Assembly: GCA_026387175.1 (NCBI GenBank)
Contig: JAPLME010000012.1
Coordinates: forward strand, 69,849 to 133,848
Reading direction: 5' to 3'
Length of the DNA: 64,000 nt
From: Candidatus Omnitrophota bacterium
GTDB taxonomy: Bacteria > Omnitrophota > Gorgyraeia > 2-01-FULL-45-10
A program made the position numbers and the translations under genes. Positions within the stretch are counted from its first letter, which is position 1. Every line of letters starts with the position of its first letter. Shown piece after piece: positions 10,471 to 39,679 of this stretch. The notes below the pieces were generated by a model that worked only from the letters and a program-made list of their open reading frames with translations, searched no databases and was not told the origin of the DNA.

Positions 10471-11154
10471 TTGAATAAACGAAAGAGCGGATTTACAATG
10501 GTTGAGATTCAGATAGCGGCATTTATCGCTTCTATCATATTATTAGCCGCTGTTTCTTTGTACACGATGTATTGGCGGACTTTCGTAACGGACAGCGCTT
10601 ATCTGGACGTTTATTCAAGTTCAAGAATCGCGGTGGACCACATGGTAAGAGATATCAGGTGCGCGGCGCAAGTAGTGACGAACTATGGTTCTTATACGAC
10701 CACCGACAATACCATCGTTCTTCAGGTCCCTTCTATAGATAACTCGAACCCACCGATCACTATAAACTCTATAACCTCAGACACAAATCTTTATTACGAT
10801 TATATAATTTATACATTGATCTATAATAATAATCTGCAAAGCTACGATCTGTACAGAATTGTCCAAATAGACGGGAAGTTCACTACCGCCGGAGACTCGT
10901 ATTATCATAAAAACGGCAGGGTAAATGAAAATCGCGCCGTAGCCCACCATTGCGGCACTAATTCCGGAAACTTACTGACTTTCAGCTCCGGAAGCGTCGG
11001 TGGCACAACGTTATCACATGTTACATATCTGTCGGATGTCAATACCATAGGTATCTCTTTGCCGATTAATGAAAAAATGCTTTCTTTAAGCGGATCGGGA
11101 ACGAACACGGCGCAGATGATCCCGACAGCGGTAGTCAGGATGCGTAATAAATAA
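10471..11154 (+). CDS. prepilin-type N-terminal cleavage/methylation domain protein (pseudopilin/minor pilin)
   Basis: KRKSGFTMVEIQIAAFIASIILLAA. TTG start preceded by GAGGA. Confidence 0.7.
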   Translation: MNKRKSGFTMVEIQIAAFIASIILLAAVSLYTMYWRTFVTDSAYLDVYSSSRIAVDHMVRDIRCAAQVVTNYGSYTTTDNTIVLQVPSIDNSNPPITINSITSDTNLYYDYIIYTLIYNNNLQSYDLYRIVQIDGKFTTAGDSYYHKNGRVNENRAVAHHCGTNSGNLLTFSSGSVGGTTLSHVTYLSDVNTIGISLPINEKMLSLSGSGTNTAQMIPTAVVRMRNK

Positions 11155-11156
11155 AT

Positions 11157-23513: not shown

Positions 23514-23590
23514 GCGCCCGTAGCTCAACTGGATAGAGTAACTGGCTACGAACCAGTAGGTTGGCCGTTCGAGCCGGCCCGGGCGCGCCA
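23514..23590 (+). tRNA. tRNA-Arg (anticodon ACG)
   Basis: Acceptor GCGCCCG/CGGGCGC; D-arm GCTC-AACTGGATA-GAGT; anticodon arm ACTGG-CTACGAA-CCAGT; T-arm GGCCG-TTCGAGC-CGGCC; discriminator G plus CCA. Confidence 0.85.
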
Positions 23591-23605
23591 TCCTCCTTCG
23601 CAGAA

Positions 23606-24070
23606 ATGAATATGCCTATTAGCGATAACATATATATGTCGGAGGCTATTAAGGAAGCGGTGAAGGCGTTCGACGCCGACGAGGTGCCCGTCGGAGCTGT
23701 CATTGTGCATAACGGCAGGGTCATTGCCAGGGCGCATAACCAGATTAAGCTATTGAAGGATCCTACGGCGCATGCCGAGATGATAGCTATCACACAGGCC
23801 GCCTCTCATCTTTCCAGCGAACGGCTATTGGAAACCACTTTATATTCTACGGTCGAGCCCTGCGCGATGTGCGCCGGGGCGATGGTTTTGGGCAGGATCA
23901 AAAGGCTGGTATACGGCGCCGAAGATCCCAAGACGGGCGCCTCCGGATCCGTCATGAATGTCGTGAATAACAGGAAATTGAACCACAGGATATCCGTGGT
24001 TAAAGGTGTGATGGAGAAAGAGAGTTCAGCTCTTCTTAAAGAGTTCTTCGCCTTAAAGAGAAAGAAATAG
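23606..24070 (+). CDS. tadA: tRNA-specific adenosine deaminase (TadA, A34-to-I in tRNA-Arg ACG)
   Basis: HAEMIAI (zinc His/Glu) and VEPCAMCAGAM (PCxxC) CDA-fold motifs. Start ATG 23606; the track ORF start 23561 lies inside the tRNA. Confidence 0.85.
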   Translation: MNMPISDNIYMSEAIKEAVKAFDADEVPVGAVIVHNGRVIARAHNQIKLLKDPTAHAEMIAITQAASHLSSERLLETTLYSTVEPCAMCAGAMVLGRIKRLVYGAEDPKTGASGSVMNVVNNRKLNHRISVVKGVMEKESSALLKEFFALKRKK

Positions 24071-24533: not shown

Positions 24534-24708
24534 CCGCCGGCCCGGACTTTATTGTTTGACATCCCACCGTCGTTAATATAGAATAATTTCACTATAATAT
24601 ACAATAAAATGGCTAATAAACGAAGATTACTCATCGGATCGTCATTCCAGAGAAAAGACCTAATTTTTTCTTTCCACTCAAAAACTAAGCGCTTGAGGAG
24701 GTAATATC

Positions 24709-25089
24709 ATGACAGGAGTCGGTATGGGAGAGCTCATCTGGTTAATATTAGCTGTCCTGTTAGGGCTGGGTGTGGTTATCGCCTGGATCATTAAAGCCGA
24801 GATAAGCCGCAACTTTTTCAGGCTTGAGGTAAAAAAATTAAGATCGCAATTGGAATCTTCGGATCGCGAGAAGGTCGTGATGATCGAGGAGATGCAGGCT
24901 TTTAAAGAAAGCGCCGGCGCGCCCGTGAATACCGGCACCCCGAGTGATGCGGACCCCGGAAAAATGATGATCGGCAAAATGGTGGAGAGGACCGGGGAGC
25001 TTGAGAAGGAGAACGAGAGGCTAAAGAAAGAACTTAGCGAGGCGAAGAGCTCGCTGGAAGAAGTTTATAAGGCGCTATGCAGTAAGTAG
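24709..25089 (+). CDS. small membrane-anchored coiled-coil protein
   Basis: GAGGAGG SD. N-terminal TM LIWLILAVLLGLGVVIAWII. C-terminal heptad-rich ELEKENERLKKELSEAKSSLEEV. Confidence 0.45.
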   Translation: MTGVGMGELIWLILAVLLGLGVVIAWIIKAEISRNFFRLEVKKLRSQLESSDREKVVMIEEMQAFKESAGAPVNTGTPSDADPGKMMIGKMVERTGELEKENERLKKELSEAKSSLEEVYKALCSK

Positions 25090-25108
25090 GGCCCCGGAGA
25101 CCAAGAGT

Positions 25109-26941
25109 ATGGAAATAAGCGATATGAAGAGACAGATCCTGGAGAAGCTCAAAGAGAAGCGCTCGAGCGCTCCGGCCGTTGTCGATACCGGGAAACCGGC
25201 TATAAGCCGGGAGGAGATATTAAACGCGATAAAGAGGCCGTTCGGCACATTGCGGCCCGAAGGACGTATTGTCATAAAGAAAGACGAGGAGCTTTTAAAA
25301 CGATACGAGAGTCTTAAGGCAGAGCTGGATCGGAAGACCGCCGTTGTTCAGGATCTGGAGAGGCGCTTGAAAGAGGAAAAAGGCCGCGCAGCCGCATTAG
25401 CCGAGACCGTGAAAGCCAGAGATGATAAGGCCGCCCATGCCAGCAGGTTATCCAAAGAGCTTGAAGATATCAGGAAGATCAGCGAGGAACAGCGCTTAAG
25501 ACACGAGAACCTGCAGGCCGAGCACAAGAAAGCGACGCTGAGCAGGGACGAGACGGCGAAGCTGCTCAAGATACTGCGTTCCGAGGCCGATGTGAAGGAG
25601 CGGACCATTCGCGACCTCCAGAAAAAAGTAACGAGGCTGGATGAGCTGGAAGAGATGCTTCGAGTAAAGAATAATAAGACGGCGGAGACAGCGAAGGTAT
25701 ATAAAGAACTTGAAGAAGCCAAGAAGCTGAACGATGAATACCGGGCGAAGATAGAAAGCGTTCGGGCGGAAAAGCGCGATGAAGAGGCGTTGCGGAGCGA
25801 AAAGATCAAAGACGAGCTGGTGCGTAAAGACGCGTTTGTACTGGATCTGCAAAAGAAATTCGCGACCGAGATCGATGAAATTACGAAGGACCGGGACAGG
25901 ACCGCATCGAATGTGGAATCGTTAAGATCAAAGCTTTACGCCGCGACAAAAGAGATAAAAGAGCAGAGCGTTAAGATGTCGCAGCTTGAAGAAGCCTCGA
26001 GGGCTAAGGACAAAAGGATACTGGAGACGGAGAAGCTGCATGCGGCGCTTGATCTCGCGAAGAGCGAGATGGAATCGAAGCTTCTGGCGGCCGAAAATGA
26101 TAATAAAAATCTCAATGAGAGGTACGCCAAGTCAAATGATGAGCTTGGGGCCGGCATAACCAGGATAGAGCAGGCCGAGAAATCTTATAAGGAGCTTGAG
26201 GCCTCTTATGGCGAGATCAGTTCCGAGCTCCAGGCAAGCCTTCGCGGCAAGAAAGAGCTCGAGGCTAAACTTGAGCAGGCGCATATAGAGCTGGAAGCGA
26301 AGACGACCCGCCTTGCGGAGGCCGATAAATTATATAAAGAGCTCGACTCAAGCGTGCGCGAGTTGACATCGAAACTTCAGGCAAACCAGCACCACACTAA
26401 AGAGGTGGAGGCCTCTAATGAAGATCTTGCGCTCAGGCTTTCAAACGCTAATCGCGATAGAAAAGAGTTTGAGGCGCGCATAACCGAGCTCGAATCAGAA
26501 GCCGAAGCAAAAACAGTTCGTCTTGAGAGCGCGGATAAATTACACAAGGAACTGGAATCTATAATAAAGGACGCTGAAGCGAAGCTTCAGGCGAGCCAGC
26601 ACAGGGTCGGTGATCTGGAAAAGGAAACGGCTCTTCTTGCGGAATCGTTGAAGGCCTCCAATCTTAAGCTGAAAGAAGTTGAGGATGAAGCGAAGAGTGA
26701 GATGGAGAAGCTTCGCGCGGAGCTGGGACCTCTCAAGAATACCGTTATACAAAAAGAGAAGAATGAGCTTGAGCTTAGAAGTTCAATAGAACATCTAGAG
26801 GTCGAGATGCAGGCGCGCGATTCTAAGATCGAAGGAGATCTTAGATATACCGAAAAGGTCATAAAAGAGATCAGCGAACTTCGTAAGAAAGTGGCGGCCC
26901 TTCAGAGGCAATCCGAGAGGACAAAGAGTGCAGGCGCTTAA
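25109..26941 (+). CDS. 610-aa coiled-coil protein with internal ~60-aa repeats
   Basis: Almost entirely E/K/L/A/R-rich heptads. Repeated EAKT[TV]RL..ADKL[YH]KEL..S...KLQA.QH blocks. 14-nt overlap with the ParA-like gene. Confidence 0.6.
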   Translation: MEISDMKRQILEKLKEKRSSAPAVVDTGKPAISREEILNAIKRPFGTLRPEGRIVIKKDEELLKRYESLKAELDRKTAVVQDLERRLKEEKGRAAALAETVKARDDKAAHASRLSKELEDIRKISEEQRLRHENLQAEHKKATLSRDETAKLLKILRSEADVKERTIRDLQKKVTRLDELEEMLRVKNNKTAETAKVYKELEEAKKLNDEYRAKIESVRAEKRDEEALRSEKIKDELVRKDAFVLDLQKKFATEIDEITKDRDRTASNVESLRSKLYAATKEIKEQSVKMSQLEEASRAKDKRILETEKLHAALDLAKSEMESKLLAAENDNKNLNERYAKSNDELGAGITRIEQAEKSYKELEASYGEISSELQASLRGKKELEAKLEQAHIELEAKTTRLAEADKLYKELDSSVRELTSKLQANQHHTKEVEASNEDLALRLSNANRDRKEFEARITELESEAEAKTVRLESADKLHKELESIIKDAEAKLQASQHRVGDLEKETALLAESLKASNLKLKEVEDEAKSEMEKLRAELGPLKNTVIQKEKNELELRSSIEHLEVEMQARDSKIEGDLRYTEKVIKEISELRKKVAALQRQSERTKSAGA

Positions 26942-27761
26942 CGGCAAACTGGACAAGATGTTTGGATGGTGGAAGGGAGAGTTTTCCGTCACAAGCGGCA
27001 AGACCGCCAAGAAACAGCTTTTCCTGAACTATAAGGGCGGTACCGGCAAAACCTCTATATCCGCGGCATATGGATATTATCTTGCGATGACGGGAAAGAG
27101 AGTGCTGATGATAGACCTGGACGCCCAGGCGCACCTGACCACCTGTTTAAACCAGAAGACCGCGCGCCATGAGAAGAGCCTGTACAGCGTGCTGATACGT
27201 TCCGCGCGGATCTCGGACGTCATAGTCGGCACGTCTCTGCCTACGCTGAAGCTTGCGCCGTCATCAATATCGCTCTCGGCTCTAGAGATGCCTTTATTCA
27301 AGATGCCGTACAGAGAATTCAGGTTACGCCGCGCGATAAAAGAGATAGAGCGCGAATTCGACTTCATAATAATAGACTCGAGCCCCAATATAGGGCTCGT
27401 AAGCCTGAACGCTATACTCGCCTCGAACGAGATACTGGTGCCTCTTCTCGCGGATTTTCTCTCGTTTCACGGGCTCAAGATACTTATGGAGACGCTCGCT
27501 TCGGTGCAGGACGATTTTAATTTTTATTTCAAAAAAATTAATATATTTTTAAACAGGTTTAACCCCGGCTACTCTATATGCAATGAATGCCTGGAAGCCG
27601 TGCGTAAGTATTATCCGGGTTATGCGCTCAAGACGGTAATAGAAGAATCGCATGAGATGATGGATGCCTCGAGCTTCGGAAAATCGATATTCGAGTTCAG
27701 TCCGGATTCGAAAGCCGCCCAAAATATTAAAGATCTTGTGCGGGAAGTCAACGGAATCTAA
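26928..27761 (+). CDS. ParA/MinD-family P-loop ATPase
   Basis: Deviant Walker A NYKGGTGKTSISAAYGYYLAMTGKRVLMIDLDAQ. Walker B-like FDFIIIDSSP. Confidence 0.8.
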   Translation: MQALNGKLDKMFGWWKGEFSVTSGKTAKKQLFLNYKGGTGKTSISAAYGYYLAMTGKRVLMIDLDAQAHLTTCLNQKTARHEKSLYSVLIRSARISDVIVGTSLPTLKLAPSSISLSALEMPLFKMPYREFRLRRAIKEIEREFDFIIIDSSPNIGLVSLNAILASNEILVPLLADFLSFHGLKILMETLASVQDDFNFYFKKINIFLNRFNPGYSICNECLEAVRKYYPGYALKTVIEESHEMMDASSFGKSIFEFSPDSKAAQNIKDLVREVNGI

Positions 27762-27797
27762 TCTGGTTAGAGACTCAAGAATTCAAGGGAGATCGTT

Positions 27798-28250
27798 ATG
27801 AAAACAAAGTTCGATGATAACGTCGCGCAGAATATACCGGTAACTAAAAATTCCGCCGAGCCGGAGCTGCCATGGAAGCTTTCCGAATCGGAGATAACCC
27901 GGATAGAAGCTACCGACGAGGAACATAAGAGCGCGATAACGGCCCCCCCGCTGCATGTGAGGGCGATATTCGTGGTGCTTTTGGTGCTCACCATATTCGT
28001 TGTGATACTGAACAGCGTAGTCAATATGACCATCGATAACGCCGAGATGAGGCTTAATATGTCAAAAAAAGAGAAACAGGTCGTCTCTATACAGACTGCG
28101 CTGACGAATGCCGCGAGCGAAAAAGCGGCCCTGAGCGATACCGCCGCAAAGCTTGAAAAACGCGTCAGTGATCTTAACGCTCAGAAAGAACTCTACACCG
28201 CGGTCATAGAGACATTGACAAAAAAGACGGATGATACACAGACCAACTAA
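27798..28250 (+). CDS. membrane-anchored coiled-coil protein
   Basis: GGGAGATCG..ATG. Single TM IFVVLLVLTIFVVILNSVV. C-terminal heptads. Confidence 0.45.
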   Translation: MKTKFDDNVAQNIPVTKNSAEPELPWKLSESEITRIEATDEEHKSAITAPPLHVRAIFVVLLVLTIFVVILNSVVNMTIDNAEMRLNMSKKEKQVVSIQTALTNAASEKAALSDTAAKLEKRVSDLNAQKELYTAVIETLTKKTDDTQTN

Positions 28251-28275: not shown

Positions 28276-30879
28276 ATGTTATTTAGAAGACTTGCTTTAT
28301 TTATAATTATATCCTTTCTGGGAATTTCGGCGGCATTCTGCCAGAACCTTGCATGGGAAGATCTCAGTAAACAATCATGGGAGTCCGCTAAAAAGGGTAA
28401 TTTCCCGGAAGCCATTGATGTCGCGATCAAAGCGCTGAATGTCGCCACCGAGCGGTATGGCCCGCGGCATAATAACGTCATAATATCCCTGAACCAGATA
28501 GCGTCTATATATAAGGCGCACGAAAGATACAGGGAGGCGGAACCGTTTTTAAAGAAAGCGCTCGCCGTGAGAGCTCTTTTGGTAAGTGACCCTATTTCTA
28601 GAGAGGATTACGCGGACATATATACGGCCATGAAGAACCTTTACGATATATATAAACTTCAGAATAAATTAGCGCGGGCGGGAAAAGTTTTGAATCGCGC
28701 TATAATGATCGAAGAGAAGTTCGCGTTCAGGAACAATTCCGGCGTTGAATCGGACATAAGAGAGCTGATATCCATATATGAGGCTCAGGATAAGCCGCAG
28801 AGGACAGAGCCTCTATATAAGAAGCTGATGGAGCTGGAAGAGAAACGGTATGGCGCTCATAGCGCCGAGGTCACCAATACGATGAATAATCTGGCTTCCG
28901 CTTACAGGGCCATGAAAAAATATTCGCAAGCCGAACCGCTTCTCAGGTCCGTAATAGAATCGGCCGAGAGTGTTCACGACGGCCCCGCCAGCCAGAATCT
29001 CCCGACATATCTTAATAACCTCGGGACAGTCTATTTCTATCAGGGGAAACTTGCCGAAGCGGAACCGCTTTTTAAGAGAGCGCTTGATATAGATGAGAAG
29101 GCCCTGGGAGCAGCTTCACCCGACATCGTCACAGACCTGAATAACATTGCCACTCTTTATTCATATCAAAAAAAATATCAGGAAGCGGAAGAGCTTTATA
29201 ACAGAGTCCTCGATATAAATGAGAAGGCGTACGGCGCCGACAGCGCCAAACTGATAAAATATATGAATAATATCGCGGCGATATTAACGTACCAGAAGAA
29301 ATATAATGACGCGGAAGGTCTTTATAAGAAAACGCTGGAGATAAGCGAGAAGTCGTTAGGGCCCGATCATTCCACCACAGCCATAGCTCTAAATAATCTG
29401 GCGTTTGTGTATGAAGCCAGAGAAGAATACGCCGAGGCCGAAAGGCTTTATTCCAGATCGGCCCTGATATGCGAGAAGGACCTCGATAAAAATTACTCTA
29501 CGATGAAGACAGCTATTAATAACCTCGTCGCTATCTACAAGATCCAGAACAGGACGCCCGAGGCCGAACAGGCTCTGCGCAGATTGATCGCCGCGCGCGA
29601 AGGCGCTAAAAAAAAAGATAATTCCGATTCCATCCCTGCCATAAAAGAGCTGATCGCGTTATACGCCTCCCAAAATAATTTTAAGATGATGGAAGACAGC
29701 TACCTGAAACTTATACTTATGGAAGCGAATGTCTTTGGCCCCGAAAGCGCGGAGCTTATTAACACAATGAACGAGTTGGCGGGTATTTACAGGAGCCGGA
29801 AAAAAATGTCCGAGGCGGAACCGCTGCTTAAAAGGGTGGTGGCGATAGCTCAAGACGTCGAAGGGCTGCCAGGGTCGAGCCTCTCAATCTATCTTAATAA
29901 CCTCGGCGCTTCATATTTTTATCAGGGCAAATTCGCTGAAGCCGAGCCCATTCTTAAAAAAGCGCTTGTCCTGGACGAAAAAGCGCTGGGCAAAGACAGC
30001 TCCGAGATGATAACGCCTCTCAATAACCTTGCCACCGTGTATTCCTATCAGAAGAAATACAGAGAAGCGGAAGCTCTTTACAATAGGGTTCTTGAGATAT
30101 CCAAAAAGACGTTAGGCCCGGAGAACATCGGCACAAGCTCAGCGCTCAATAATCTGGCCTATCTTTATGAGTCGGAGGAAAATTACGACGAAGCTGCGAA
30201 GTTTTATAACAGTGCCGTAGAGATATGCGAAAAAGACATGAAGGGCAATTATTCCGAACTTAAGTATTCGCTCAACGGCCTCGCCAACATTTACAGAAGC
30301 CAGGGCAAATATGAAGATGCCGAATCGTATTTGAAGAAAATCCTCGCGATAGAGGAAAAGGTCGCGGGAGCCCAGAGCGCGGATCTAGCGGATACGTTGA
30401 ATTCTCTCGCCAGGCTTTACAGGGCGCAGGGGCGTTATTCGGAAGCGGAGGCTGCGCTCAAGAACGCTATAGAGATAGGCGAAAAGGCCCTGGGGGCGAA
30501 TAGCCCGTCCATGAAACCTTACCTGAACAATCTTGCTACAGTATATTTTTATCAGAAAAGGTATGATGACGCGGAGCCGCTCCTTGAAAAGGTCCTTGAT
30601 ATAGATGAACAGTCAACGGGCATGGACAGCGCCGGCCTTATAAAAGACCTGAATAATCTGGCGGCGGTGTATTCGAGCCAGAAAAAATTCGGAGACGCCG
30701 AGTTACTTTACGCAAGGGCGGCATATATATGCCAGAATTTCAGCAATGACCCGAGAGAGCTTTCCAGCGTGCTCGAAAACATGGCCAATATGTACGAGCT
30801 GAGCGATGATTCAGGAAGAGCTGATACATTACGGAAGCAATCCGAAGCAATAACCGCAAAAATAGCAACTCCGCAGTAA
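28276..30879 (+). CDS. secreted 867-aa tetratricopeptide (TPR_10/12, kinesin-light-chain-like) repeat protein
   Basis: Signal peptide, then more than 15 repeats of NNLA..Y..Q.KY.EAEPL..RAL.I.EKALG. Confidence 0.8.
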   Translation: MLFRRLALFIIISFLGISAAFCQNLAWEDLSKQSWESAKKGNFPEAIDVAIKALNVATERYGPRHNNVIISLNQIASIYKAHERYREAEPFLKKALAVRALLVSDPISREDYADIYTAMKNLYDIYKLQNKLARAGKVLNRAIMIEEKFAFRNNSGVESDIRELISIYEAQDKPQRTEPLYKKLMELEEKRYGAHSAEVTNTMNNLASAYRAMKKYSQAEPLLRSVIESAESVHDGPASQNLPTYLNNLGTVYFYQGKLAEAEPLFKRALDIDEKALGAASPDIVTDLNNIATLYSYQKKYQEAEELYNRVLDINEKAYGADSAKLIKYMNNIAAILTYQKKYNDAEGLYKKTLEISEKSLGPDHSTTAIALNNLAFVYEAREEYAEAERLYSRSALICEKDLDKNYSTMKTAINNLVAIYKIQNRTPEAEQALRRLIAAREGAKKKDNSDSIPAIKELIALYASQNNFKMMEDSYLKLILMEANVFGPESAELINTMNELAGIYRSRKKMSEAEPLLKRVVAIAQDVEGLPGSSLSIYLNNLGASYFYQGKFAEAEPILKKALVLDEKALGKDSSEMITPLNNLATVYSYQKKYREAEALYNRVLEISKKTLGPENIGTSSALNNLAYLYESEENYDEAAKFYNSAVEICEKDMKGNYSELKYSLNGLANIYRSQGKYEDAESYLKKILAIEEKVAGAQSADLADTLNSLARLYRAQGRYSEAEAALKNAIEIGEKALGANSPSMKPYLNNLATVYFYQKRYDDAEPLLEKVLDIDEQSTGMDSAGLIKDLNNLAAVYSSQKKFGDAELLYARAAYICQNFSNDPRELSSVLENMANMYELSDDSGRADTLRKQSEAITAKIATPQ

Positions 30880-31000: not shown

Positions 31001-31381
31001 ATGGATAAAATAAAATTATCGATTTCCATATTATTGATAGTAGCCGTCGCAAGCTCCCTGGGCTTTGCGGAAATATTTGAGACGGGTATTGCGAGTTATT
31101 ACTCTTATGAATGCGCGAAATCTCCCATGGCAAATGGTAAGCCATTCGATCCGGAGAAGAGGACATGCGCGAGCTGGTTTTACGATTTTGGGACGGTGTT
31201 ATCCGTGCAAAGCCTCGATACCGGACGCTCTACGTATGTTGTTGTGACAGACCGCGGGCCGAATAAAAGGCTTGTGAAAAAAGGAAGAGTGATAGACTTA
31301 TCAAAGAGAGCATTCGAAGATATCTGCGATTTAAAGAAAGGTTTTACACGAGTTATCATCACTGTAAAGACCCGCCTATAG
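31001..31381 (+). CDS. RlpA-like double-psi beta-barrel (DPBB) domain protein
   Basis: GIASYYS...G...TCASW...GTVLSV....GRSTYVVVTDRGP....RVIDLSKRAFE.I matches the RlpA/DPBB_1 pattern. Signal peptide. Confidence 0.7.
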   Translation: MDKIKLSISILLIVAVASSLGFAEIFETGIASYYSYECAKSPMANGKPFDPEKRTCASWFYDFGTVLSVQSLDTGRSTYVVVTDRGPNKRLVKKGRVIDLSKRAFEDICDLKKGFTRVIITVKTRL

Positions 31382-31402
31382 ATAATAATATTATCAAATC
31401 TT

Positions 31403-31437
31403 GACAATACTATATTCATTAGGTATACTTAATTCAA
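31403..31437 (+). promoter_or_regulatory. sigma70-like promoter candidate
   Basis: TTGACA, 17 nt, TATACT, about 55 nt upstream of ATG 31492. Confidence 0.3.
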
Positions 31438-31491: not shown

Positions 31492-32616
31492 ATGAAAATA
31501 GAGAGAAATTATTTTTTCACCTGTCAAGAGCTGAATGACAAAGAAAAAAGGAATTTGTTAATATACGACTTGATAAGAAAAAAAGGCGTGATATCCCGGG
31601 CGGAGATTACTAAAGCCACCGGGATAAACGCGGTATCGGTCTCCAATTACGTAAATAATTTTATTGAAAAGAAGATGGTTCTCGAAAAAGGATTTGATGT
31701 ATCCTCCGGCGGAAGAAAGCCGGAACTCGTTGAGCTCGATTCCGAATCGAACTACGTTATAGGTATAAATATCGGTAAGGCTAATATACGGAGCGTGGTC
31801 GCGGATATCGGATTAAGCGTGAAAGCCAGGAAGCAGGTTTCCAGGCCATCGGACCGGGGAATGTCCGGAGAGATCGTTAAATTAATAGAAGAGATCATCC
31901 GCGATTCCAAGATCAGCGCTTCAAATATAAAAGCTATAGGACTGGGCGTATCGGCCGCAAAATTTGATCAGGCCGCCGGCGTAATCAAAAAAGAGACCGG
32001 CATAGACGCGTATGCAGGTCCTTCCGCTGTGTGCGCGGCTTTCGCGGAGAAGCGCTTTAATAAGGCCGCGGAAAACTTCGAGAATATGTTATATATATAT
32101 TCGGACGTCGGCGAAGGCGTTATGACGCGCGGCGAAGCGTATCTGAGCGCGTCGGAAGATGCGGAGCTTTTGGACGGGAAGCTCAGGTACTTAAGGCCAT
32201 GGGATGATTATTTAAGCATAGTGGAGAGCGCGAAGCGCGAAGTGGCCAGAGGCGTGGGGACCAAAATCGTGAGCCTGGCCAGCGGAAGAATGGATAACAT
32301 AACAAAAGAAGTAGTAGTAGCTGCCGCGAAAGCCGATGACGAAGTCGCGCTTAACATAGCGTTCGGCGTCGGTATAAACCTGGGACTAAGGATAGCGTAT
32401 CTAATCAATCTTTTCACCCCCGAAGTTATAGTGATAGGGGACGGCCTCCAGGATACCGGCGATATAATATTCATGCCGCTCAAAAAGATGATAGAGCGGC
32501 TATCTTATAGAAACAATATGAAAAATCTGAAGATAATATTGGGCGCTTTCGGTGAAGACGCGCCTGAAATCGGAGCGGCATCGCTCGCTGTCAGAGAAAT
32601 ATTTCTTAAAGCGTAA
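31492..32616 (+). CDS. ROK-like transcriptional regulator / sugar-kinase-fold protein with N-terminal wHTH
   Basis: N-terminal LLIYDLIRKKGVISRAEITKATGINAVSVSNYVNNF (MarR-like wHTH), followed by an actin-like ATPase fold (VIGINIG...). Canonical ROK Zn motif not evident. Confidence 0.55.
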   Translation: MKIERNYFFTCQELNDKEKRNLLIYDLIRKKGVISRAEITKATGINAVSVSNYVNNFIEKKMVLEKGFDVSSGGRKPELVELDSESNYVIGINIGKANIRSVVADIGLSVKARKQVSRPSDRGMSGEIVKLIEEIIRDSKISASNIKAIGLGVSAAKFDQAAGVIKKETGIDAYAGPSAVCAAFAEKRFNKAAENFENMLYIYSDVGEGVMTRGEAYLSASEDAELLDGKLRYLRPWDDYLSIVESAKREVARGVGTKIVSLASGRMDNITKEVVVAAAKADDEVALNIAFGVGINLGLRIAYLINLFTPEVIVIGDGLQDTGDIIFMPLKKMIERLSYRNNMKNLKIILGAFGEDAPEIGAASLAVREIFLKA

Positions 32617-32618
32617 AA

Positions 32619-32722
32619 GGCCGATGTCGGAGACATCGGCACTTAGCTTGTAATGCGGCTTAATAAACTTGACCGATGTCGGAGACATCGGCACTTAGCC
32701 TGTAATATGGCTGAATAAACTT
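32619..32722 (+). repeat. two tandem copies of the ~53-nt two-hairpin leader motif (copies 2 and 3)
   Basis: 32619-32671 and 32672-32722 each read CCGATGTCggaGACATCGG-cactt-AGCYtgtaatRYGGCT-Kaataaacttg. The last copy is followed by GGAGGA and ATG 32734. Confidence 0.75.
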
Positions 32723-32733
32723 GGAGGAAAAGT

Positions 32734-33087
32734 ATGTCTGAAGAGAAAAATTGCAGGCTCTGCGGAAAACCGTTCCTTGCCAATAAGTACAGACCCAATC
32801 AGACGATCTGTTCTTCGCTCGAATGCCAATATCAGAGGCAGCTGGAGAATATGAAACAGTGGCGCGATCGAAACCCCCAGTACTTCAAGTATAAAGAAAG
32901 CCAGGATTCCTCCTGGAAAGAGACCTGCAGGCAGCGATCGCTCGAATGGCGCAAGCGCCATATGGACTATCTGAAACTCTACAGAGAAGAGCATAGAGAG
33001 CGCCATCGTAATTACATGAGAGATTACATGAGGCAGTATAGAAAGCAGAAGGGCGTCGGGGAAACAAAAGACTGGAAGGCCGAATAA
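32734..33087 (+). CDS. zinc-ribbon protein with extremely basic Arg/Tyr/Lys/Glu-rich C-terminal region
   Basis: CRLCGKPF...CSSLECQYQRQ (C4), then RKRHMDYLKLYREEHRERHRNYMRDYMRQYRKQKG. Confidence 0.5.
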   Translation: MSEEKNCRLCGKPFLANKYRPNQTICSSLECQYQRQLENMKQWRDRNPQYFKYKESQDSSWKETCRQRSLEWRKRHMDYLKLYREEHRERHRNYMRDYMRQYRKQKGVGETKDWKAE

Positions 33088-33095
33088 ACTTTCCC

Positions 33096-35099
33096 ATGCC
33101 CATATTTAAACACGCGGTAAAGATCATAATATCAGCCACACTTATTTTCGGCTTATCGGCCTGGAGCACCGTTTTCGCGAGCCAGCTTGGTTCTAAAGAA
33201 GAACTTAATCTGGACCTTAATCCCGTCGTGCCTGAGGCCGAGACCTCTGAACCGAAGGCTCCCGCAAAAACAACTCCACAGCCTACAATTGTAAAAAAGG
33301 CCCCCGCGCCGATCCCTGAGCTTCCCAAAAAAGAGATTGCCGAACAGAAGCCGGACATGAATAAAGCCGCCGTGGCGCCTGTAGTGTCGCCGAAAGCGCC
33401 AGTGGTTGCGCCAAAAACACCGGCAGTCGCGCCGAAAGCAATGCCGAAAGATACGGTGAAGAAGGCCGAGCCTGTCGCGCCGCAGACAATAAAAACTCAG
33501 CCGATAAAAGTGACAGAGAAAAGCGCTGAAGAGATGAAGCCGCCGGAAGTGAAGAAGCCGGTAGAGAGTAAAGTCGAGATCATAAAGCCTCCCAAAATAA
33601 GTAAAGTAAGCAGGAAGCCTTATGAGAAGGGATCGGGAATTGTCAATAAATGGTTTGGCCTCGAAACCGGAGTGGAAAAGATGGGCTCGCCCCGCGGCGT
33701 CAATCCGCAGATAAATCCGGTTCCGAGCTTCGGCGACGTATTTACTCTTGACGATTGTATAAGCATCGCGATAAAGAATGACATCCCTTTACAGGTATCG
33801 GAGAAGAGCGTAAAGCTCGCGCAGATGAGAATTATTGAGGCCCGGCGCAATATGCTGCCTTCGGTCACCGTAGCCTTTGAGCCATACACCGGAAAAGTCA
33901 ATGAACGGAACTATATAGGGAGAAAACAGTACATAGAGGGCAAACAGCCGCTCTACCACGGCGGTGAATTATACTACACTTTAAAACAGGCAGAGACAAA
34001 CCTTGAGATAACGAAGACCGAAGGGGATAAGATAAAAAATGAGCTCGTGCTCCAGGTCAAAAAGGCTTACTATACTCTCGCGAAGACGGAGGATAACCTG
34101 CGTATGCAGACAGAGCTCTCCGGCGAAGTCGAACGTATTTTCCAAATGGTCAACGACCAGTATGATGCCAATGTCGCTTCCAAACTGGAGCTTCTTAATG
34201 TGAGCTCGCAGGCAAGCCAGGTCAAATTTCAATTCGCTTCCGCGGAAGGCGATGTCTCTGTGGCGGAATTGATATTAAAGCAGGCGATGAATATAGATCC
34301 GGAAATAAAGATAAACGTGAAACCAAAACTCGCGTTTAATAGAGTAAAAGTGAGATATGAAGACGCGCTGACGGCAGCTTTTATGAACAGGCCGGAGGTG
34401 AAGACCAACCTGCTGATGATAGAATATTATACTTACGGCAAAAAGATAGCCGCATCCAAGAGCCTGCCAAAAGTAGATCTTATGGGAAGCTGGGGCTACG
34501 CGAAGGAATATTTTACACCACTGGATAACGCGTGGGCCGATACAGGTTTTCCCGGACAGACCCCTATATATCCGGAGCAGAAGCTCGAAGAGCAGTGGTA
34601 CGCCGGAGTAAAGGCATCGGTTCCGTTCTGGGGATCCACCGCGGAATATTCCTTTACCAAAGAACAGTGGACTCCGGTGATAAGCGCGTACCAGGGGACA
34701 GAGGCCACCACAAATTCTTATAAACTGAAGCTCTTCGACAATCTCGCCATGTACTCCGATAAACAGCTCTCGGAAGTAGACTTTGACAGGGCAAGACAGG
34801 AACTTAACAAGATAAAGCAGGATGTCACTCTCGAGGTGAAAGAACAGTGTTTCAATTACCAGAAAGCGCTTATACAGCTCGATACGGCTTCCAATAAAGT
34901 AAGGTACCAGGAAAATGACTTCGAATTTACGAAAACGAAACGCTCGCTCGATGAGGCGCCGGACTCCGGCGTCATAGAGAGCATGATAAAGCTTTTTCAG
35001 GAGAGATTCGGGTATGTGCAGGCTTTAGCGGATTGTCATACGGCCATAGCAAGTATAAATAAAGCGATCGGCATCGAAGATTATTTTAAGGATGAATAA
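33096..35099 (+). CDS. TolC-like outer membrane efflux protein (OEP) with Pro/Ala/Lys-rich N-terminal extension
   Basis: Signal peptide. ~150-aa PAK-rich low-complexity region. Then two OEP repeats (LTLDDCISIAIKNDIPLQVSEKSVKLAQMRIIEARRNMLPSV...). Confidence 0.8.
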   Translation: MPIFKHAVKIIISATLIFGLSAWSTVFASQLGSKEELNLDLNPVVPEAETSEPKAPAKTTPQPTIVKKAPAPIPELPKKEIAEQKPDMNKAAVAPVVSPKAPVVAPKTPAVAPKAMPKDTVKKAEPVAPQTIKTQPIKVTEKSAEEMKPPEVKKPVESKVEIIKPPKISKVSRKPYEKGSGIVNKWFGLETGVEKMGSPRGVNPQINPVPSFGDVFTLDDCISIAIKNDIPLQVSEKSVKLAQMRIIEARRNMLPSVTVAFEPYTGKVNERNYIGRKQYIEGKQPLYHGGELYYTLKQAETNLEITKTEGDKIKNELVLQVKKAYYTLAKTEDNLRMQTELSGEVERIFQMVNDQYDANVASKLELLNVSSQASQVKFQFASAEGDVSVAELILKQAMNIDPEIKINVKPKLAFNRVKVRYEDALTAAFMNRPEVKTNLLMIEYYTYGKKIAASKSLPKVDLMGSWGYAKEYFTPLDNAWADTGFPGQTPIYPEQKLEEQWYAGVKASVPFWGSTAEYSFTKEQWTPVISAYQGTEATTNSYKLKLFDNLAMYSDKQLSEVDFDRARQELNKIKQDVTLEVKEQCFNYQKALIQLDTASNKVRYQENDFEFTKTKRSLDEAPDSGVIESMIKLFQERFGYVQALADCHTAIASINKAIGIEDYFKDE

Positions 35100-35135
35100 A
35101 ATTTATCAGGACACAAAAAAAGGGGCGCTTCATAT

Positions 35136-36338
35136 ATGGACATAAAAAATAAGAAGAAATTTCTTTTTATCGCGATTGTCGCGGTAGTGGCGGTGGTAAT
35201 CCTGGTAAGGACGACCGGGAACATCCAGAAGGCGATATTCAAGAAAAAACCCAGCGCCGCCGGCAAGGTCCCCGCCGTAAGTTTCGAAGAGGAAGTTACG
35301 CCGGTAAAGGTCTATAAGGTCAGGCGCATGGATTTTAAAGATACGCTGCCGGCCATAGGAAACATAAAAGGTTTCAAAGAAGTCGATCTTCGCTTTCAGG
35401 CGGCGGGCGTTATAGAGAGCATGAACTTTGAGGAAGGCGAGAAGATCCAGGAAGGCGACATCATAGCGAGCGTTGTGCAGAAGGACGCGCTCTTAAAACT
35501 AAAATATGCTGAAGTTGAATTGAATAAAAATAAGAGGCTCTTCGAGATAGGGGCGATATCGCCCTTGAAGATGGAGCAGGCCAAGCTTGAATACGAATCC
35601 GCGAAATCGGATCTCGACAAGACAAATATATACGCGATGTACAACGGTTTTATGGGACCAAAGACTTTAGATGTCGGCAGTTACGTAAATCCCAGTACCA
35701 GCGATAAGGTCGGAACATTTATAGTTATGGATAAAGTATACGCCGAGTTCAGCATAATAGAGAAGGACATGCCTAATGTCACATTGGGCCAGAAAGTGGA
35801 TGTATTCGCCGAATCCTATCCCAATAAATCTTTCAGCGGCACTGTCGACAGGATCTCTCCTATTATTGAGGGCCGTTCGCGCACGATGACTATAAAGGTA
35901 GAGCTTGATAATAAAGACGGAATCTTGAAACCCGGATTATTCATCAGGGCGCTCATCTATACGTATGACAAGAAGGACGCGATAGTGGTGCCGACATCCG
36001 CGATGAAGAAGAAGGACGCCGATGTCTTTGTTTACATCGTGACTAAGGAGGAGCCGAAGAAAGAGGTAGTTGAGGAGAAGCCGAAAGAGAAGAAGCGCGG
36101 GCTCTTCGGATTCATGGCCGGAAAGAAGAAGGAGGAGCCGAAGAAAGAGCCGATGGTGAAAGAGAAAGAGGCCCAGTTCGGCACCGTCGAAGTGAGAAAG
36201 ATCAAGATGGGCCATACCACACCGGATCTTATGGAAGTCGACGACGGCGTGAAAGAGGACGATCTCGTGATAGTGGAGGTCCAGGAAGAATTTAAGGATA
36301 AAGCCCGGGTAGAGATATCAGAAGTGCAGGAGACGTAA
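35136..36338 (+). CDS. RND efflux membrane-fusion (periplasmic adaptor) protein, HlyD family, with K/E-rich insertion
   Basis: N-terminal TM. Biotinyl-lipoyl-like and beta-barrel MFP motifs (GNIKGFKEVDLRFQAAGVIESMNFEEGEKIQEGDIIASV). EEPKKE repeats near the C-terminus. Confidence 0.85.
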   Translation: MDIKNKKKFLFIAIVAVVAVVILVRTTGNIQKAIFKKKPSAAGKVPAVSFEEEVTPVKVYKVRRMDFKDTLPAIGNIKGFKEVDLRFQAAGVIESMNFEEGEKIQEGDIIASVVQKDALLKLKYAEVELNKNKRLFEIGAISPLKMEQAKLEYESAKSDLDKTNIYAMYNGFMGPKTLDVGSYVNPSTSDKVGTFIVMDKVYAEFSIIEKDMPNVTLGQKVDVFAESYPNKSFSGTVDRISPIIEGRSRTMTIKVELDNKDGILKPGLFIRALIYTYDKKDAIVVPTSAMKKKDADVFVYIVTKEEPKKEVVEEKPKEKKRGLFGFMAGKKKEEPKKEPMVKEKEAQFGTVEVRKIKMGHTTPDLMEVDDGVKEDDLVIVEVQEEFKDKARVEISEVQET

Positions 36339-36342
36339 TCTT

Positions 36343-36412
36343 TAAAATAGGGACAGCGCCCTATTTGTTTTCGAATAAGTCCGGAAAAATAGGGCGCTGT
36401 CCCTATTTTTCA
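36343..36412 (+). terminator. palindromic double hairpin with T-tract between MFP and RND genes (intra-operon attenuator/terminator candidate)
   Basis: aaaATAGGGacagcgCCCTATtt ... aaATAGGGcgctgtCCCTATTTTT. The two arms are exact reverse complements. Confidence 0.45.
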
Positions 36413-36426
36413 AGAGAAAATAACCA

Positions 36427-39400
36427 ATGAGCCTTCCGTCTTTTTCCATCAATAGACCTGTCACGATGCTGATGATCTATACGATGCTCCTTTTGTTGGG
36501 CATAGTATGCATGATGCAGCTGCCGGTGGAACTATATCCTAATATAAGTTTCGGCGAGATAAGCATAATAATCGAGGTGCGAGGCGGCATTCCGCCCACA
36601 GAAGTCGAATCGATGGTGACGAAACTCGTCGAGGAGGGCGTGGGCAGCGTAACGCATCTGGAAGAGATGCTTTCGATATCCAAAGAGGGCGAATCGACGG
36701 TTGTCCTGAGTTTCACGCCGGGAATAGCCATGGAGTTCGCCGCGCTCGAGGTTCGTGAAAAATTCGCCCGTGTCAAGAATAAGCTCCCCAAAGAGATAGA
36801 AAAACCGATCATAGCCCAGTTCAAACGCTCCGATGTCCCCATAGTTATCATTTCTATAACGAGCCTGAAGCGCACTACCGAAGAGATCCGGAAGATCGTG
36901 GACGAGAATGTGCGCGAGGTGATAAAACGCATACCCGGCGTAGCCGATGCGGAGGTCGCCGGCGGGAGAGAACGCAAGATCCTGATAGAGGCCGATCAAA
37001 GAAAGATGGCCGCGTATAATCTTTCGCTGGATCGTATCATCGCTATGATAGGCGCCAATAATCTGAACCTGCTATCCGGCGATATAGAGCGCGCTAAAGA
37101 CAAGTATCTCATAAGAACGATCGGTCTTTACAGGACGGTAGATGATATAAAGAATATTCCTGTAACGGCCCTGCCCGACGGAACGATGGTACGCCTTAAG
37201 GATGTGGCAAGTGTGCTTGATTCTTACCTCGACCCTACAGGATACGCCCGCGTCAATGTGCGCCCCGTCGTATCGATATATGTGCAGAAGGAGTCGACCG
37301 CCAACACCATTAAGGTCGCACAAGCGATTGTAGCGGAAGTCGACCGCTTACGCGGGATATTGCCCAAGGACCTGCAGCTGGTAATAACGAGTAATCAGGC
37401 GGATTTTATAGAAAAATCCATCGAAAATCTTAAGGTGGCCCTTCTTCAGGGAGCCGGCCTTATTATAATAGTTCTCTCGTACTTCATGATAAAACTGAGC
37501 AGGAAAGCAATGCTGTTGGTAACAGCTCTTTTAATCACGATTCTTTTCATACCCACGAAATTCTTATATATACTCCTGGTGGTAATGGTAATAGCGGCGA
37601 TCGCGATCAAGAAAGTGCGGCCGGTCCTGATAGTGAGCTCGGCGATTCCCATTTCCATTATCATCACTTTTATATTCATGTGGATGGTGAAGCTGTCGAT
37701 AAACTTCATGACGCTCTTTGGCTTGGCGCTCGGGGTAGGTATGCTCGTCGATAACGCCATAGTCGTATTTGAAAATATAGCCCATAAACATGAAAAAGGC
37801 ATAAGCGGGATCCCCGCGGCGATAGAGGGCACCGAAGAAGTATGGGTGGCGATACTTGCCGGCACGCTTACGCACGTCTCAGTATTCCTGCCGATGATCT
37901 TTGTGGGACAGGAAATAAAACTGCTTTACGGCGGCGTTGCCTGGACGGTGACGATCTCACTTTTTATATCGCTCTTCGTCGCTATCACGGTCGTGCCGCT
38001 CCTTTCCTCAAGAACACGCTTTTCGATCGAAGATATACCGAAAGGTTACGGAAAGGCCAATGTGGTTGGCTTCATGAAGGCGCTGTATGCCGCCCAGCGC
38101 AGGGGCGTTATTTACGTCATAAGGAATATAAGGAACGTATATATTATAGCGTTTATAGCATTTTTGATCGCACTCTTCGGCTTAGGCAGGCTCGGCATGG
38201 AATTCATGGGCACTACCGAACAGAACAAGTTCACCATATTCATAGAATTACCTACGGGGGCCAAGCTTGACGCTACCGATTCGATAGTTAAAAAAGTCGA
38301 AGCTATAGTCAAGGAAATCCCCGAAGTCAAAACGTTCTCGGCCCGCGTCGAGCCGTGGTCAAGCAAGGTCTATGTGGAGCTTGTAAGCCTTCTAAGGCGC
38401 AAGCGTTCCGTCGCCGAAGTCATTGAGTCCCTCCGTCCTAAGGTTGAAAAATTTAGGCCTGCGTTCATATACTTCGAGGAAGAGCAGGAGGTCGGCACAA
38501 AAGAGGTGATAGTGGAACTATTCGGTTACGAGTATGACACTATGCGTGAAGTGGCGATATCGATGGCGACGCGCCTCGGGGCCGTAAAAGGCTTCACAGA
38601 TACCAAGATAAGGATGAGGGAAGGGCGCCCTGAGCTCGGGCTAAGGGTGGATAAAAAGAAGGCCTACATATTCGATATGACGACTACCGATATAGCCGAT
38701 GCCGTGCATGCCCAGATGAGAGGATTGCGCGCGACACTTTTCCACACGGCATCGAGCGAGGTCGAGACCATAGCGCGGCTTGACGAGAAATACCGTAAAA
38801 CGTTTAAAGATGTTCACAAGCTCATGTTCATAAATAAGAATGACGAAAGGATATATCTCGATCAGGTGGCTGATTTTAAATATGGCCTTGGCCCCAGCGA
38901 AATATGGCGCAAGAACAAGACCAGAATGATACAGGTGAGCGCCAATATAGGTAAATATCCGCTGAGTAAAGCCGCGACACTTGCCAAGGAGGCCTTCGGC
39001 GACTTGAAGCTTCCGGATGGTTATTATTACAGGATCGGCGGTAACTACCCTACTATGATGGCCACCCAGAAGCAGTTCAAGATAATAATCTGGCTGATAG
39101 TGGTACTTATATATCTGGTGCTGGCATCGCTCTTTGAGTCGTATCACCAGCCGTTCATAATAATGGTTTCGGTGCCGCTCGCGCTTATAGGTGTTACGAT
39201 AGCGCTCTACGTGACCGGTAAATCAGTGGGGATGGGCGTCCTGGTGGGGATAATGATGCTCGGCGGCATCGTGGTCAATAACGCTATACTCCTGATCGAT
39301 CACGCTAACAACCTGCGCAGGCAGAAAGTTAATTACCTGAAAGCGGTAATAATAGCGTCAAGAGACAGGCTCAGGCCGATACTTATGACCACAATGACCA

Positions 39401-39615: not shown

Positions 39616-39679
39616 AATCTGATCCACCGAGGGATTGGTCTTGACAAGCTTGACTACTTAAACTTATAATAAAAATTAT

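Follow-up and report, generated by a model that had tools for sequence, protein, structure and literature searches.

Gene content and conservation of the locus

We analyzed a 64,000-nucleotide (nt) stretch of DNA from a Candidatus Omnitrophota bacterium (GenBank assembly GCA_026387175.1, contig JAPLME010000012.1), referred to here as the window, in which a ParA-like ATPase is encoded among coiled-coil and membrane proteins. Four + strand genes, designated g1 to g4, make up this module, with g3 encoding the ATPase (Table 1). A previous sequence-only reading of the DNA had described the four genes as tightly packed with a 14-nt overlap; every open reading frame (ORF) was recovered where that reading had placed it, and the overlap, between g2 and g3, is exactly 14 nt. 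Gaps of 19 nt and 36 nt separate g1 from g2 and g3 from g4, respectively. Shine-Dalgarno-like purine-rich runs precede g1, g3, and g4, which were the three starts read, and the 175-nt gap upstream of g1 holds a promoter candidate. The only comparably strong + strand promoter-like site between positions 23400 and 33200, likewise a consensus match only, lies ahead of a downstream ROK gene, and no + strand terminator-like site was found between the two.

The search for the same four-gene synteny in relatives, which the sequence-only reading had proposed, showed that the synteny is strictly conserved. The order g1-g2-ATPase-g4 was present in all related loci that reached far enough. The 120 best database relatives of the ATPase (clusters) were 62 to 92% identical to it, and all those with a source name belonged to Candidatus Omnitrophota/Omnitrophica; the taxonomy of metagenome contigs lacking a source name was assumed from similarity. 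When members of a divergent lineage (60 to 67%) were counted, ATPase identity inside the group ranged from 60 to 92%. Several metagenome contigs carried an identical ATPase sequence with its neighbors unchanged. On contigs whose ATPase was 68 to 71% identical, genes for a small transmembrane protein, a 389- to 807-amino-acid (aa) protein, the ATPase, a 150- to 191-aa protein, and an 825- to 937-aa protein were followed by genes for a ROK regulator, a 116- to 120-aa CxxC protein, and an outer membrane efflux protein (OEP), membrane fusion protein (MFP), and resistance-nodulation-division (RND) series.

A metagenome search performed with the g4 alignment alone returned 28 loci, with g4 proteins 41 to 89% identical. 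All 27 loci having upstream sequence carried the ATPase gene immediately upstream of g4, g1 and g2 lay upstream whenever the contig was long enough, and a gene for a tetratricopeptide repeat (TPR) protein, g5, lay directly downstream wherever sequence continued. The ATPase/g4 junction spanned −23 to +49 nt across loci and the other junctions were similarly short, three spacing outliers being artifacts of longest-ORF start calls. HMMER detected only 31 cluster representatives related to g4 among 1.84 billion representative proteins. The full-length relatives were ~140 to 176 aa long and colinear, and about a third were shorter fragments. Even the remotest (29 to 35% identical) directly follow an ATPase that is 60 to 67% identical, and in two loci of the divergent lineage (L125 and L126), the remote g4 is also preceded by g1-like (129 aa) and g2-like (699 and 647 aa, respectively) genes. 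The invariant core is thus four co-oriented, tightly packed genes, g1-g2-ATPase-g4. The module is chromosomal and restricted so far to the Omnitrophota, which are uncultivated, mostly ultra-small bacteria. No published description of it was found in the literature searched, two Omnitrophota genome papers being silent on ParA, MinD, and cell division, and a broad search for orphan ParA proteins with membrane-anchored coiled coils returned irrelevant papers only.

It is very improbable that these genes are neighbors without shared function or that they form a mobile or defense element. One faint match to LmuB (coiled coil) was obtained with the PADLOC defense models, which gave nothing significant on the window. 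Against such an explanation, gene order, orientation, and tight spacing are retained while the partners diverge to ~30% identity. In addition, no mobile-element signal was found in the module context, and the window is ordinary chromosome, with two tRNA-Arg genes, a tadA-like deaminase gene, ispH, amtB-glnB, a cobalamin riboswitch, sensor kinase genes, and RND efflux genes. Base composition is even across the window, and essentially all genes lie on one strand.

Catalytic and surface residues of the ATPase

The deviant Walker A motif of the ParA/MinD type that the sequence-only reading had recognized in g3 (KGGTGKTS, residues 36 to 43) is accompanied by Pfam matches to AAA_31 (E value, 5e-45) and CbiA (1e-16). 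Residues K36, G37, G38, K41, T42, D63, D65, and D150 were invariant in 121 of 121 orthologues, and D65 aligns with D60 of Myxococcus xanthus ParA. An AlphaFold model built with 68 orthologues (predicted local distance difference test score [pLDDT], 81.8; predicted TM-score [pTM], 0.83) was compared with solved structures by Foldseek. Soj/ParA proteins matched best (TM-score, 0.85; root mean square deviation, 1.7 to 1.9 Å), followed by McdA (0.83) and MinD (0.72 to 0.77); BcsQ and FleN were also listed, with scores below that of Soj. By sequence, the closest solved structure was M. xanthus ParA (8RAY; E value, 3e-34), then Helicobacter pylori and Thermus thermophilus Soj, with archaeal MinD and McdA at E values near 1e-10. 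The superfamily features examined, namely, a deviant Walker A with its signature lysine, the aspartates of Walker A′ and of Walker B, and the family fold, are therefore all present. As judged from its residues, g3 retains what is required for ATP-dependent sandwich dimerization and hydrolysis, and it is predicted to be a ParA by descent and fold that is competent for the ATP switch.

The ATPase is nevertheless set apart from chromosomal ParA. Among species-representative genomes, its relatives comprised those of six Omnitrophota genomes at 70 to 85% identity, and all others were at most 37% identical. Many of the latter were also from Omnitrophota and consisted of a 265-aa ParA encoded between yidC and a gene for a 283-aa ParB, followed by ndk, which is the classic origin-proximal arrangement. 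These canonical Omnitrophota ParA proteins are 55 to 58% identical to M. xanthus ParA, versus 30% for g3, and 38 clade-defining substitutions separate the g3 clade from them. The sequence-only reading had named clustering with a parB-adjacent ParA as the result that would count against it. Instead, g3 falls in a discrete clade whose members are 60 to 92% identical, with identity to canonical ParA not exceeding 37%. These comparisons suggest that g3 is a separate paralogue and not the chromosomal ParA.

No parB gene was found beside the ATPase gene in more than 40 related loci, whereas canonical Omnitrophota parA has parB directly downstream. The same reading had noted that neither parB nor parS was evident nearby, and a wider scan agreed. 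Domains were scanned in + strand ORFs of at least 100 aa, covering the window up to the first 2,000 aa of an open-ended ORF that starts at 43189, and no ParB, MinC, or MinE domain was detected; MinC and MinE domains were likewise absent among module neighbors in the related loci. A search with the common chromosomal parS consensus gave a single match in the window, with three mismatches and inside the giant ORF, against 0.72 expected by chance.

The residues by which ParA binds DNA were compared in an alignment that joined the 121 orthologues to nine canonical Omnitrophota ParA proteins and to ParA of M. xanthus and Soj of H. pylori. The position of M. xanthus R209, taken as the equivalent of Bacillus subtilis Soj R189 from the alignment made here, holds D, E, Q, G, A, or S in all 121 clade members; that of R235 holds E in all 121, and that of R238 holds E or D in all 121. 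Each of these positions is an arginine in nine of nine canonical Omnitrophota ParA proteins. The corresponding residues of the window protein are G214, E240, and E243. An R238E variant of M. xanthus ParA has been reported to lack nonspecific DNA binding (PMC12462528). The mean net charge of residues 200 to 277 is −2.7 in the clade; for canonical ParA, most values are +1 to +2 (range, −2 to +2). One arginine, R210, is newly conserved in the clade, near the old DNA-binding loop.

We regard as improbable, though worth weighing, a nucleoid-based system in which g3 takes part in PomXYZ-, McdAB-, or ParABS-like positioning through noncanonical DNA-binding residues or serves as a replacement chromosomal ParA. 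The nearness of its sequence and fold to chromosomal ParA/Soj, the flanking coiled-coil proteins (as in pomXYZ), the clade-specific R210, and the fact that canonical parAB was not confirmed in the same genomes are consistent with such a system. The replacement of the three DNA-binding arginines in the whole clade, two of them by acidic residues, and the net acidic region argue against it, as does the lack of a ParB, a parS, or a helix-turn-helix- or ribbon-helix-helix-type partner in the scanned window. Moreover, integral membrane proteins make up two of the three partners, a poor fit to cargo that travels on the nucleoid. With the lost arginines and the net acidic region taken as a sequence proxy, the nucleoid is probably not the translocation surface. 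The sequence-only reading had likened the locus to PomXYZ, MipZ, and McdAB and not to plasmid partition; its rejection of partition is supported here, but the nucleoid-type analogy appears less likely to hold.

At the ParA DNA-binding positions g3 also shows similarity to MinD. BLASTP against Escherichia coli MinD, with the MinD sequence checked against PDB entry 3Q9L, aligned LNRFNPGYS of g3 with LTRYNPGRV and VIEESHE with VIPEDQS. The C-terminal amphipathic membrane-targeting helix of MinD is absent, and g3 stops after the last core helix (…LVREVNGI). From its sequence, then, g3 appears to have neither known surface-binding route, that is, neither the DNA-binding arginines of ParA nor the membrane helix of MinD. 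Its N-terminal helix (residues 4 to 15, LNGKLDKMFGWW) is predicted with low confidence and has a modest hydrophobic moment (0.34, versus 0.45 for the MinD helix). The corresponding motif, L-D/E-K/R-M/I-F-G-W-L/M-K/R, occurs in just 25 of 147 orthologues, the subclade that contains the window, and may form a helix with which this lineage binds the membrane or a partner.

Three cysteines are specific to the clade: C73 (118 of 121 orthologues), C218 (119 of 121), and C221 (105 of 121), the canonical ParA residues there being G, T, and V. The C218-x-x-C221 pair, present in 103 of 121 orthologues, sits just past the former DNA-binding loop, which we take to be roughly the location of the cluster-bridging CxxC of Mrp/NBP35 ATPases. 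A metal or redox site is possible. The pair was considered as a core metal site and rejected as a defining feature, since divergent lineages lack the second cysteine.

Partner proteins and neighboring genes

The sequence-only reading had called the large neighbor of the ATPase a coiled coil, and our analysis bears this out. E, K, L, and A abound in the g2 protein, which contains five prolines and has no Trp or Cys. It is ~90% helical in a single-sequence AlphaFold model, with a short helix (residues 4 to 18), a low-confidence linker (19 to 60), and long helices at residues 61 to 188, 195 to 437, and 446 to 608. Heptad periodicity is above that of shuffled controls; by a crude score, 27% of its windows exceeded the 95th percentile of shuffles, versus 2% for the ATPase. 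The N-terminal helix (residues 1 to 18, MEISDMKRQILEKLKEKR) is conserved and basic, with K7, R8, K13, K15, K17, and R18 in helix 4 to 18. Two further motifs are conserved, one in mid-rod (NVExLRSKLYAATKExKEQ) and one at the C terminus (RDxKIExDxKYxEKxxKEVxELRxK). Searches of g2 against Pfam, NCBIfam, and PDB profiles gave generic coiled-coil matches only.

Internal repeats of ~60 aa had also been claimed for g2. The repeats are present, but the period differs: the two best copies match at 21 of 40 residues (score, 109; shuffle maximum, 53) with an offset of 70 aa, and a further copy lies 49 aa upstream. Weaker xEADKLYKELxxx copies are found further upstream, and the DNA repeat families D4 and D5 within g2 are spaced by 210 nt. 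Orthologues range from 389 to 807 aa, varying with repeat number. The g2-like genes of two sister metagenomes (L125 7034-9133 and L126 1766-3709) are identical save for one in-frame repeat unit of 52 aa. This difference and the spread of lengths indicate that rod length shifts by repeat gain and loss, even among close relatives.

N-terminal transmembrane anchors had been assigned to both small proteins, correctly for g1 but not for g4. The g1 protein has a transmembrane segment at residues 10 to 28 (hydropathy, 2.9 over 19 residues), followed by a basic stretch next to the membrane, a middle part that varies, and a nearly invariant C-terminal helix, ENxRLKKELxEAKSSLEEVYKAL. Its K+R counts are 0.2 before and 4.0 after the transmembrane segment (n = 20 orthologues), and by the positive-inside rule the N terminus is predicted to be outside and the coiled coil cytoplasmic. 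In g4 the single transmembrane segment is central (residues 57 to 75), behind a conserved 55-residue N-terminal tail. This tail begins with the peptide MKTKFxxNVAxxIPxTKxxxEPxLPWK (residues 1 to 28), whose basic residues are K2, K4, and K17, and the C-terminal coiled coil ends in LEKRVSDLxAQKELxxxVIExLTKK. The K+R/D+E values of g4 are 2.5/0.8 before and 1.8/2.4 after the segment (n = 32 orthologues). They suggest a cytoplasmic N-peptide and a periplasmic coiled coil, a prediction less decisive than that for g1. In g1, g2, and g4 alike, conservation is focused in short terminal motifs set apart by a variable or repeat-expanded rod (Table 1).

None of the three partners matched a described family in Pfam, NCBIfam, PADLOC, or PDB profile searches. 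Remote homology searches against solved structures returned generic coiled coils only (GCN4, myosin, reovirus sigma-1, and Vipp1) with nonsignificant E values, and the database matches of g1 were generic leucine zippers, also not significant. Two candidate relationships of g4 were rejected. A match to DUF4446 (18.5 bits against a cutoff of 27.4) covered the transmembrane segment and helix only; the hhalign probability was 0.5%, and the C-terminal globular domain of DUF4446 is missing in g4. A hidden Markov model of the g4 N-peptide, considered as a ParB-like ParA-interaction motif, found no ParB N terminus among the 4,346 ORFs of all loci retrieved. In Clostridia/Bacillota genomes retrieved as distant ParA relatives, a DUF4446 membrane protein of 169 to 189 aa is encoded one or two genes downstream of parA-parB (L037, L038, L042, L045, L046, L048, L049, L053, and L073; E values of 1e-42 to 1e-52 for the six scanned). 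DUF4446, unrelated to g4, is another uncharacterized membrane protein that has a genetic link to a ParA system.

The locus had been described as a four-gene unit, which holds for the core, although the main clade has a tightly linked fifth gene. This gene, g5, encodes a protein consisting wholly of TPR_12/TPR_10 repeats (TPR_12 E value, 5e-145), and a Sec-type signal peptide begins all 14 distinct orthologues examined. It lies downstream of g4 in every main-clade locus with enough sequence. In L125 and L126 a 234-aa coiled-coil protein gene and a hybrid sensor kinase gene take its place, which makes g5 an accessory, clade-specific fifth member and not part of the core. A gene for an exported RlpA-like double-psi beta-barrel protein, annotated as having a lytic transglycosylase fold, is more loosely associated. 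It is directly upstream of g1 in L016 to L018, L105 to L107, L113, and L119, downstream in L094, L100, and L007, and missing at some module loci. It is the sole neighbor that hints at a cell-wall function.

In much of the phylum, the module is succeeded by genes for the ROK regulator, CxxC protein, OEP, MFP, and RND, in that order (seen in the window and in L007, L009, L011, L014 to L016, L096, L114 to L116, and L119); the window has two RND genes. The shared order could reflect a functional link or simply frozen gene order. The basic 117-aa CxxC protein encoded between the ROK and OEP genes has a zinc-ribbon-like CxxC…C…C N terminus (MSEEKNCRLCGKPFLANKYRPNQTICSSLECQYQRQ…) and is 76 to 100% identical across lineages whose TPR protein is merely 35 to 40% identical. 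It has no Pfam match and is the best-conserved protein of the neighborhood, yet it is uncharacterized. Twelve kilobases downstream of the module, a single ORF begins that runs past the end of the window and would encode at least 6,937 aa. No Pfam match was obtained for the first 2,000 aa, and the ORF has transmembrane-like hydrophobic stretches. Possession of giant proteins has been reported as a hallmark of Omnitrophota (bioRxiv 10.64898/2026.06.07.730766; 10.1101/2023.11.21.568195).

These neighbors bear on a different explanation, in which g3 is an assembly or localization factor for one envelope machine, like BcsQ for cellulose synthase, FlhG/FleN for flagella, TadZ/CpaE for Tad pili, or ParC for chemoreceptor arrays. 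A secretion, efflux, or adhesion apparatus would then be recruited or licensed at one site and no spatial pattern would be generated; candidate clients would be either the efflux genes (OEP-MFP-RND) located downstream or the phylum's giant surface proteins. The constant order of the ROK-to-RND block after the module in many lineages, the appearance of BcsQ and FleN in the structural search, the giant ORF, and the periplasmic TPR scaffold, of a kind typical of envelope-spanning export systems, all fit this explanation. However, the ROK gene is preceded by a strong promoter-like site of its own, and genes for a synthase, a pilus, a flagellum, or a secretion ATPase do not adjoin the module. The divergent lineage also keeps the four-gene core with different neighbors (a sensor kinase, OprB, and Feo genes), which shows that the downstream linkage is not obligatory. 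We consider the envelope-machine explanation rather unlikely, although of the alternatives it deserves the most attention.

A split bacterial tyrosine kinase or polysaccharide copolymerase-type system, with a Walker-type kinase that is acted on by a membrane activator and governs exopolysaccharide export, would also place a membrane partner gene next to an ATPase gene, with a periplasmic TPR protein present, and g3 gave weak NCBIfam matches to the eps_fam and Wzc models, far under their cutoffs. The C terminus of g3 lacks a tyrosine cluster, ParA/Soj proteins are by far its best matches, and no glycosyltransferase, Wza, Wzx, or Wzy genes were found nearby in the scanned window. This explanation is scarcely credible.

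Elsewhere in the window, a tRNA-Arg(ACG) gene stands directly 5′ of the tadA-like tRNA adenosine deaminase gene and overlaps the start of its longest ORF; judging by homologues of 152 and 153 aa in L002 and L013, the true start is probably further downstream. Since tRNA-Arg(ACG) is the substrate of TadA, the genes for enzyme and substrate are adjacent. A cobalamin riboswitch (71.6 bits) is located upstream of a radical SAM/SPASM gene. The credible genes of the window are practically all on the + strand, and GC skew is positive except in the 2-kb bin from 10001 to 12000 (−0.017). This pattern fits a long codirectional stretch of one replichore.

Table 1 Positions of features in the window and conservation of partner-protein segments
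Feature	Position	Strand	Mean commonest-residue frequency	Columns at least 90% conserved	Remarks
Cobalamin riboswitch	8099-8279	+			
Radical SAM/SPASM gene	8563-9930				
tRNA-Arg(ACG)	23514-23590				
tadA-like gene	23561-24070				Longest ORF
Sigma-70-like promoter candidate	24556-24584	+			TTGACA, 17 nt, TAGAAT; 11/12 matches; consensus match only
Ribosome-binding site before g1	24695-24701	+			GAGGAGG
g1	24709-25089	+			126-aa bitopic coiled-coil protein
g2	25109-26941	+			610-aa coiled-coil rod
g2 repeat copy, residues 394-433	26288-26407	+			Unit xEADKLYKELxxxxxxxxxKLQAxQH; one of two best copies
g2 repeat copy, residues 464-503	26498-26617	+			Same unit; other best copy
g3	26928-27761	+			277-aa ParA-like ATPase, GTG start
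g3 N-terminal helix	26937-26972	+			Residues 4-15
g3 Walker A	27033-27056	+			Residues 36-43
g3 C73	27144-27146	+			
g3 C218 to C221	27579-27590	+			
g4	27798-28250	+			150-aa bitopic membrane protein
g4 transmembrane segment	27966-28022	+			Residues 57-75
g5	28276-30879	+			867-aa exported all-TPR protein; 25-nt gap after g4
RlpA-like double-psi beta-barrel protein	31001-31381	+			126 aa, exported; Pfam DPBB_1, E value 1e-13
Promoter-like site ahead of ROK gene	31401-31429	+			Consensus match only
ROK-CxxC-OEP-MFP-RND block	31492-42838	+			
CxxC protein	32734-33087	+			117 aa
First RND gene	36427-39615	+			
Second RND gene	39680-42838	+			
Giant ORF	43189-64000	+			At least 6,937 aa; open at window edge
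g1 last 26 residues (…SLEEVYKAL)			0.80	13/26	
g2 N-terminal helix			0.60	1/18	M-E-I-S-E-M/I-K-R/K-x-I-L/M-E-K-I
g2 first rod			0.26	0/195	
g2 mid-rod motif			0.65	8/45	
g2 C-terminal motif			0.66	11/38	
g4 N-terminal 28 residues			0.74	12/28	47 sequences
g4 linker after N-peptide			0.37	0/22	
g4 C-terminal coiled coil			0.66	7/36	

A proposed membrane-tethered switch and its known relatives

ParA/MinD ATPases organize chromosomes, division sites, organelles, and envelope machines. We infer a positioning or cytoskeletal role for the Omnitrophota module, as the sequence-only reading did, from its architecture. The loss of the arginines in all 121 orthologues and the presence of two membrane proteins among the three partners make a membrane-tethered, non-DNA mode likelier than a Pom- or Mcd-like one. 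We put about even confidence in the view that the module is not a DNA partition system but a ParA/MinD-type switch that acts on a membrane-anchored coiled-coil scaffold and is coupled across the inner membrane, and less in each individual step of the mechanism.

In the proposed mechanism, the ATP-bound g3 dimer would dock on a protein surface at the inner membrane, and not on the nucleoid or on lipid. The g2 rod and g1, whose coiled coil is predicted to be cytoplasmic, would form this surface. The trigger for hydrolysis and release would be a conserved basic peptide at the N terminus of g2, g4, or both proteins; ParB, MinE, and PomX trigger their ATPases likewise. The g4 protein would relay the switch state across the membrane, where its periplasmic coiled coil could meet the exported TPR protein of the main clade. 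The output might be an envelope-associated structure that is placed, spaced, or assembled in a timed manner. Our guess at a cargo in cell-wall remodeling or division, made from the loosely linked RlpA-like gene, is the weakest step.

Several points weigh against the proposed switch, which is predicted from sequence, models, and gene order. Losing the canonical arginines is no proof of lost DNA binding, and the conserved R210 is close by. The predicted topology of g4 derives solely from a modest charge bias, and periplasmic coupling may be clade specific, since the TPR protein is not universal. The link to the cell wall and division consists of one loosely syntenic gene. Omnitrophota are reported to retain ftsZ and dcw genes (PMC12283558), which leaves no gap in the division machinery that would call for a new system.

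A stronger form of the proposal can be stated, although we consider it doubtful. The nucleoid is the surface for ParA, PomZ, McdA, and MipZ, and the lipid bilayer is the surface for MinD and FlhG. In a third ParA/MinD mode, the surface would be a genetically linked lattice of membrane-anchored coiled coils, and the signal would pass through the inner membrane to a periplasmic TPR scaffold. If this were true, the module would form a positioning machine that is driven by ATP, spans the envelope, and is specific to the ultra-small Omnitrophota, with the division site, a wall-remodeling site, or a host contact apparatus as possible targets.

Each ParA/MinD variant understood so far has revealed a different route from the ATP switch to spatial order, and g3 is strongly constrained throughout a phylum that is uncultivated and has a virtually unexplored cell biology. 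If the partners are its surface and activators, the module would show a ParA-type switch retargeted from DNA to a membrane protein scaffold and would offer a first handle on spatial organization in nanobacteria. Its parts are small and amenable to work in a surrogate host or in vitro without cultivation.

Among known systems, ParABS (Soj/Spo0J and M. xanthus ParA) provides the best sequence and fold match to g3, which shares its signature lysine, catalytic aspartates, and type Ib size. It differs in that the module has no ParB or parS, the arginines corresponding to R209, R235, and R238 are replaced, and canonical parAB lies beside yidC in other genomes. PomXYZ, which positions the division site in M. 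xanthus, resembles the module in having an orphan ParA-type ATPase beside coiled-coil proteins, with the ATPase far better conserved than its partners. The g2 protein is like PomX in its short, conserved, positively charged N-terminal peptide, its disordered linker, and its coiled coil, which in PomX self-associates. The N-terminal 22 residues of PomX activate PomZ, and a charged N-terminal helix followed by a disordered linker and a rod is the layout reported for activators of ParA/MinD ATPases (PMC7993993). However, the nucleoid is where PomZ acts, and both PomX and PomY are soluble proteins, whereas the module lacks the DNA-binding arginines and has two membrane partners. In the family searches, g1, g2, and g4 showed no likeness to described families.

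MinD is similar to g3 at the ParA DNA-binding positions (TRYNP for NR[Y/F]NP and I-P-E-D for I-E-E-S), and the module, like MinD, appears to be membrane associated. In Bacillus, MinD is recruited by way of a membrane protein and a coiled-coil protein (MinD-MinJ-DivIVA), which provides a precedent. Yet g3 is 23% identical to E. coli MinD, versus 30 to 36% to ParA/Soj, and its TM-scores are 0.72 to 0.77 against 0.85. In contrast to MinCDE, the module has no C-terminal amphipathic helix on g3 and no minC or minE neighbor. Bitopic coiled-coil or repeat landmarks dock ParA-family ATPases in Caulobacter (TipN with ParA) and Vibrio (HubP with ParA1, ParC, and FlhG). Unlike the module partners, in which no homology to such landmarks was detected, TipN and HubP are not encoded in a conserved operon with their ATPases, and those ATPases keep DNA or another matrix. 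The module therefore belongs to the ParA/MinD superfamily but to none of the described subfamilies with which it was compared. By analogy, its parts list is probably closest to that of PomXYZ, and its probable site of action, the membrane, is closest to that of MinD.

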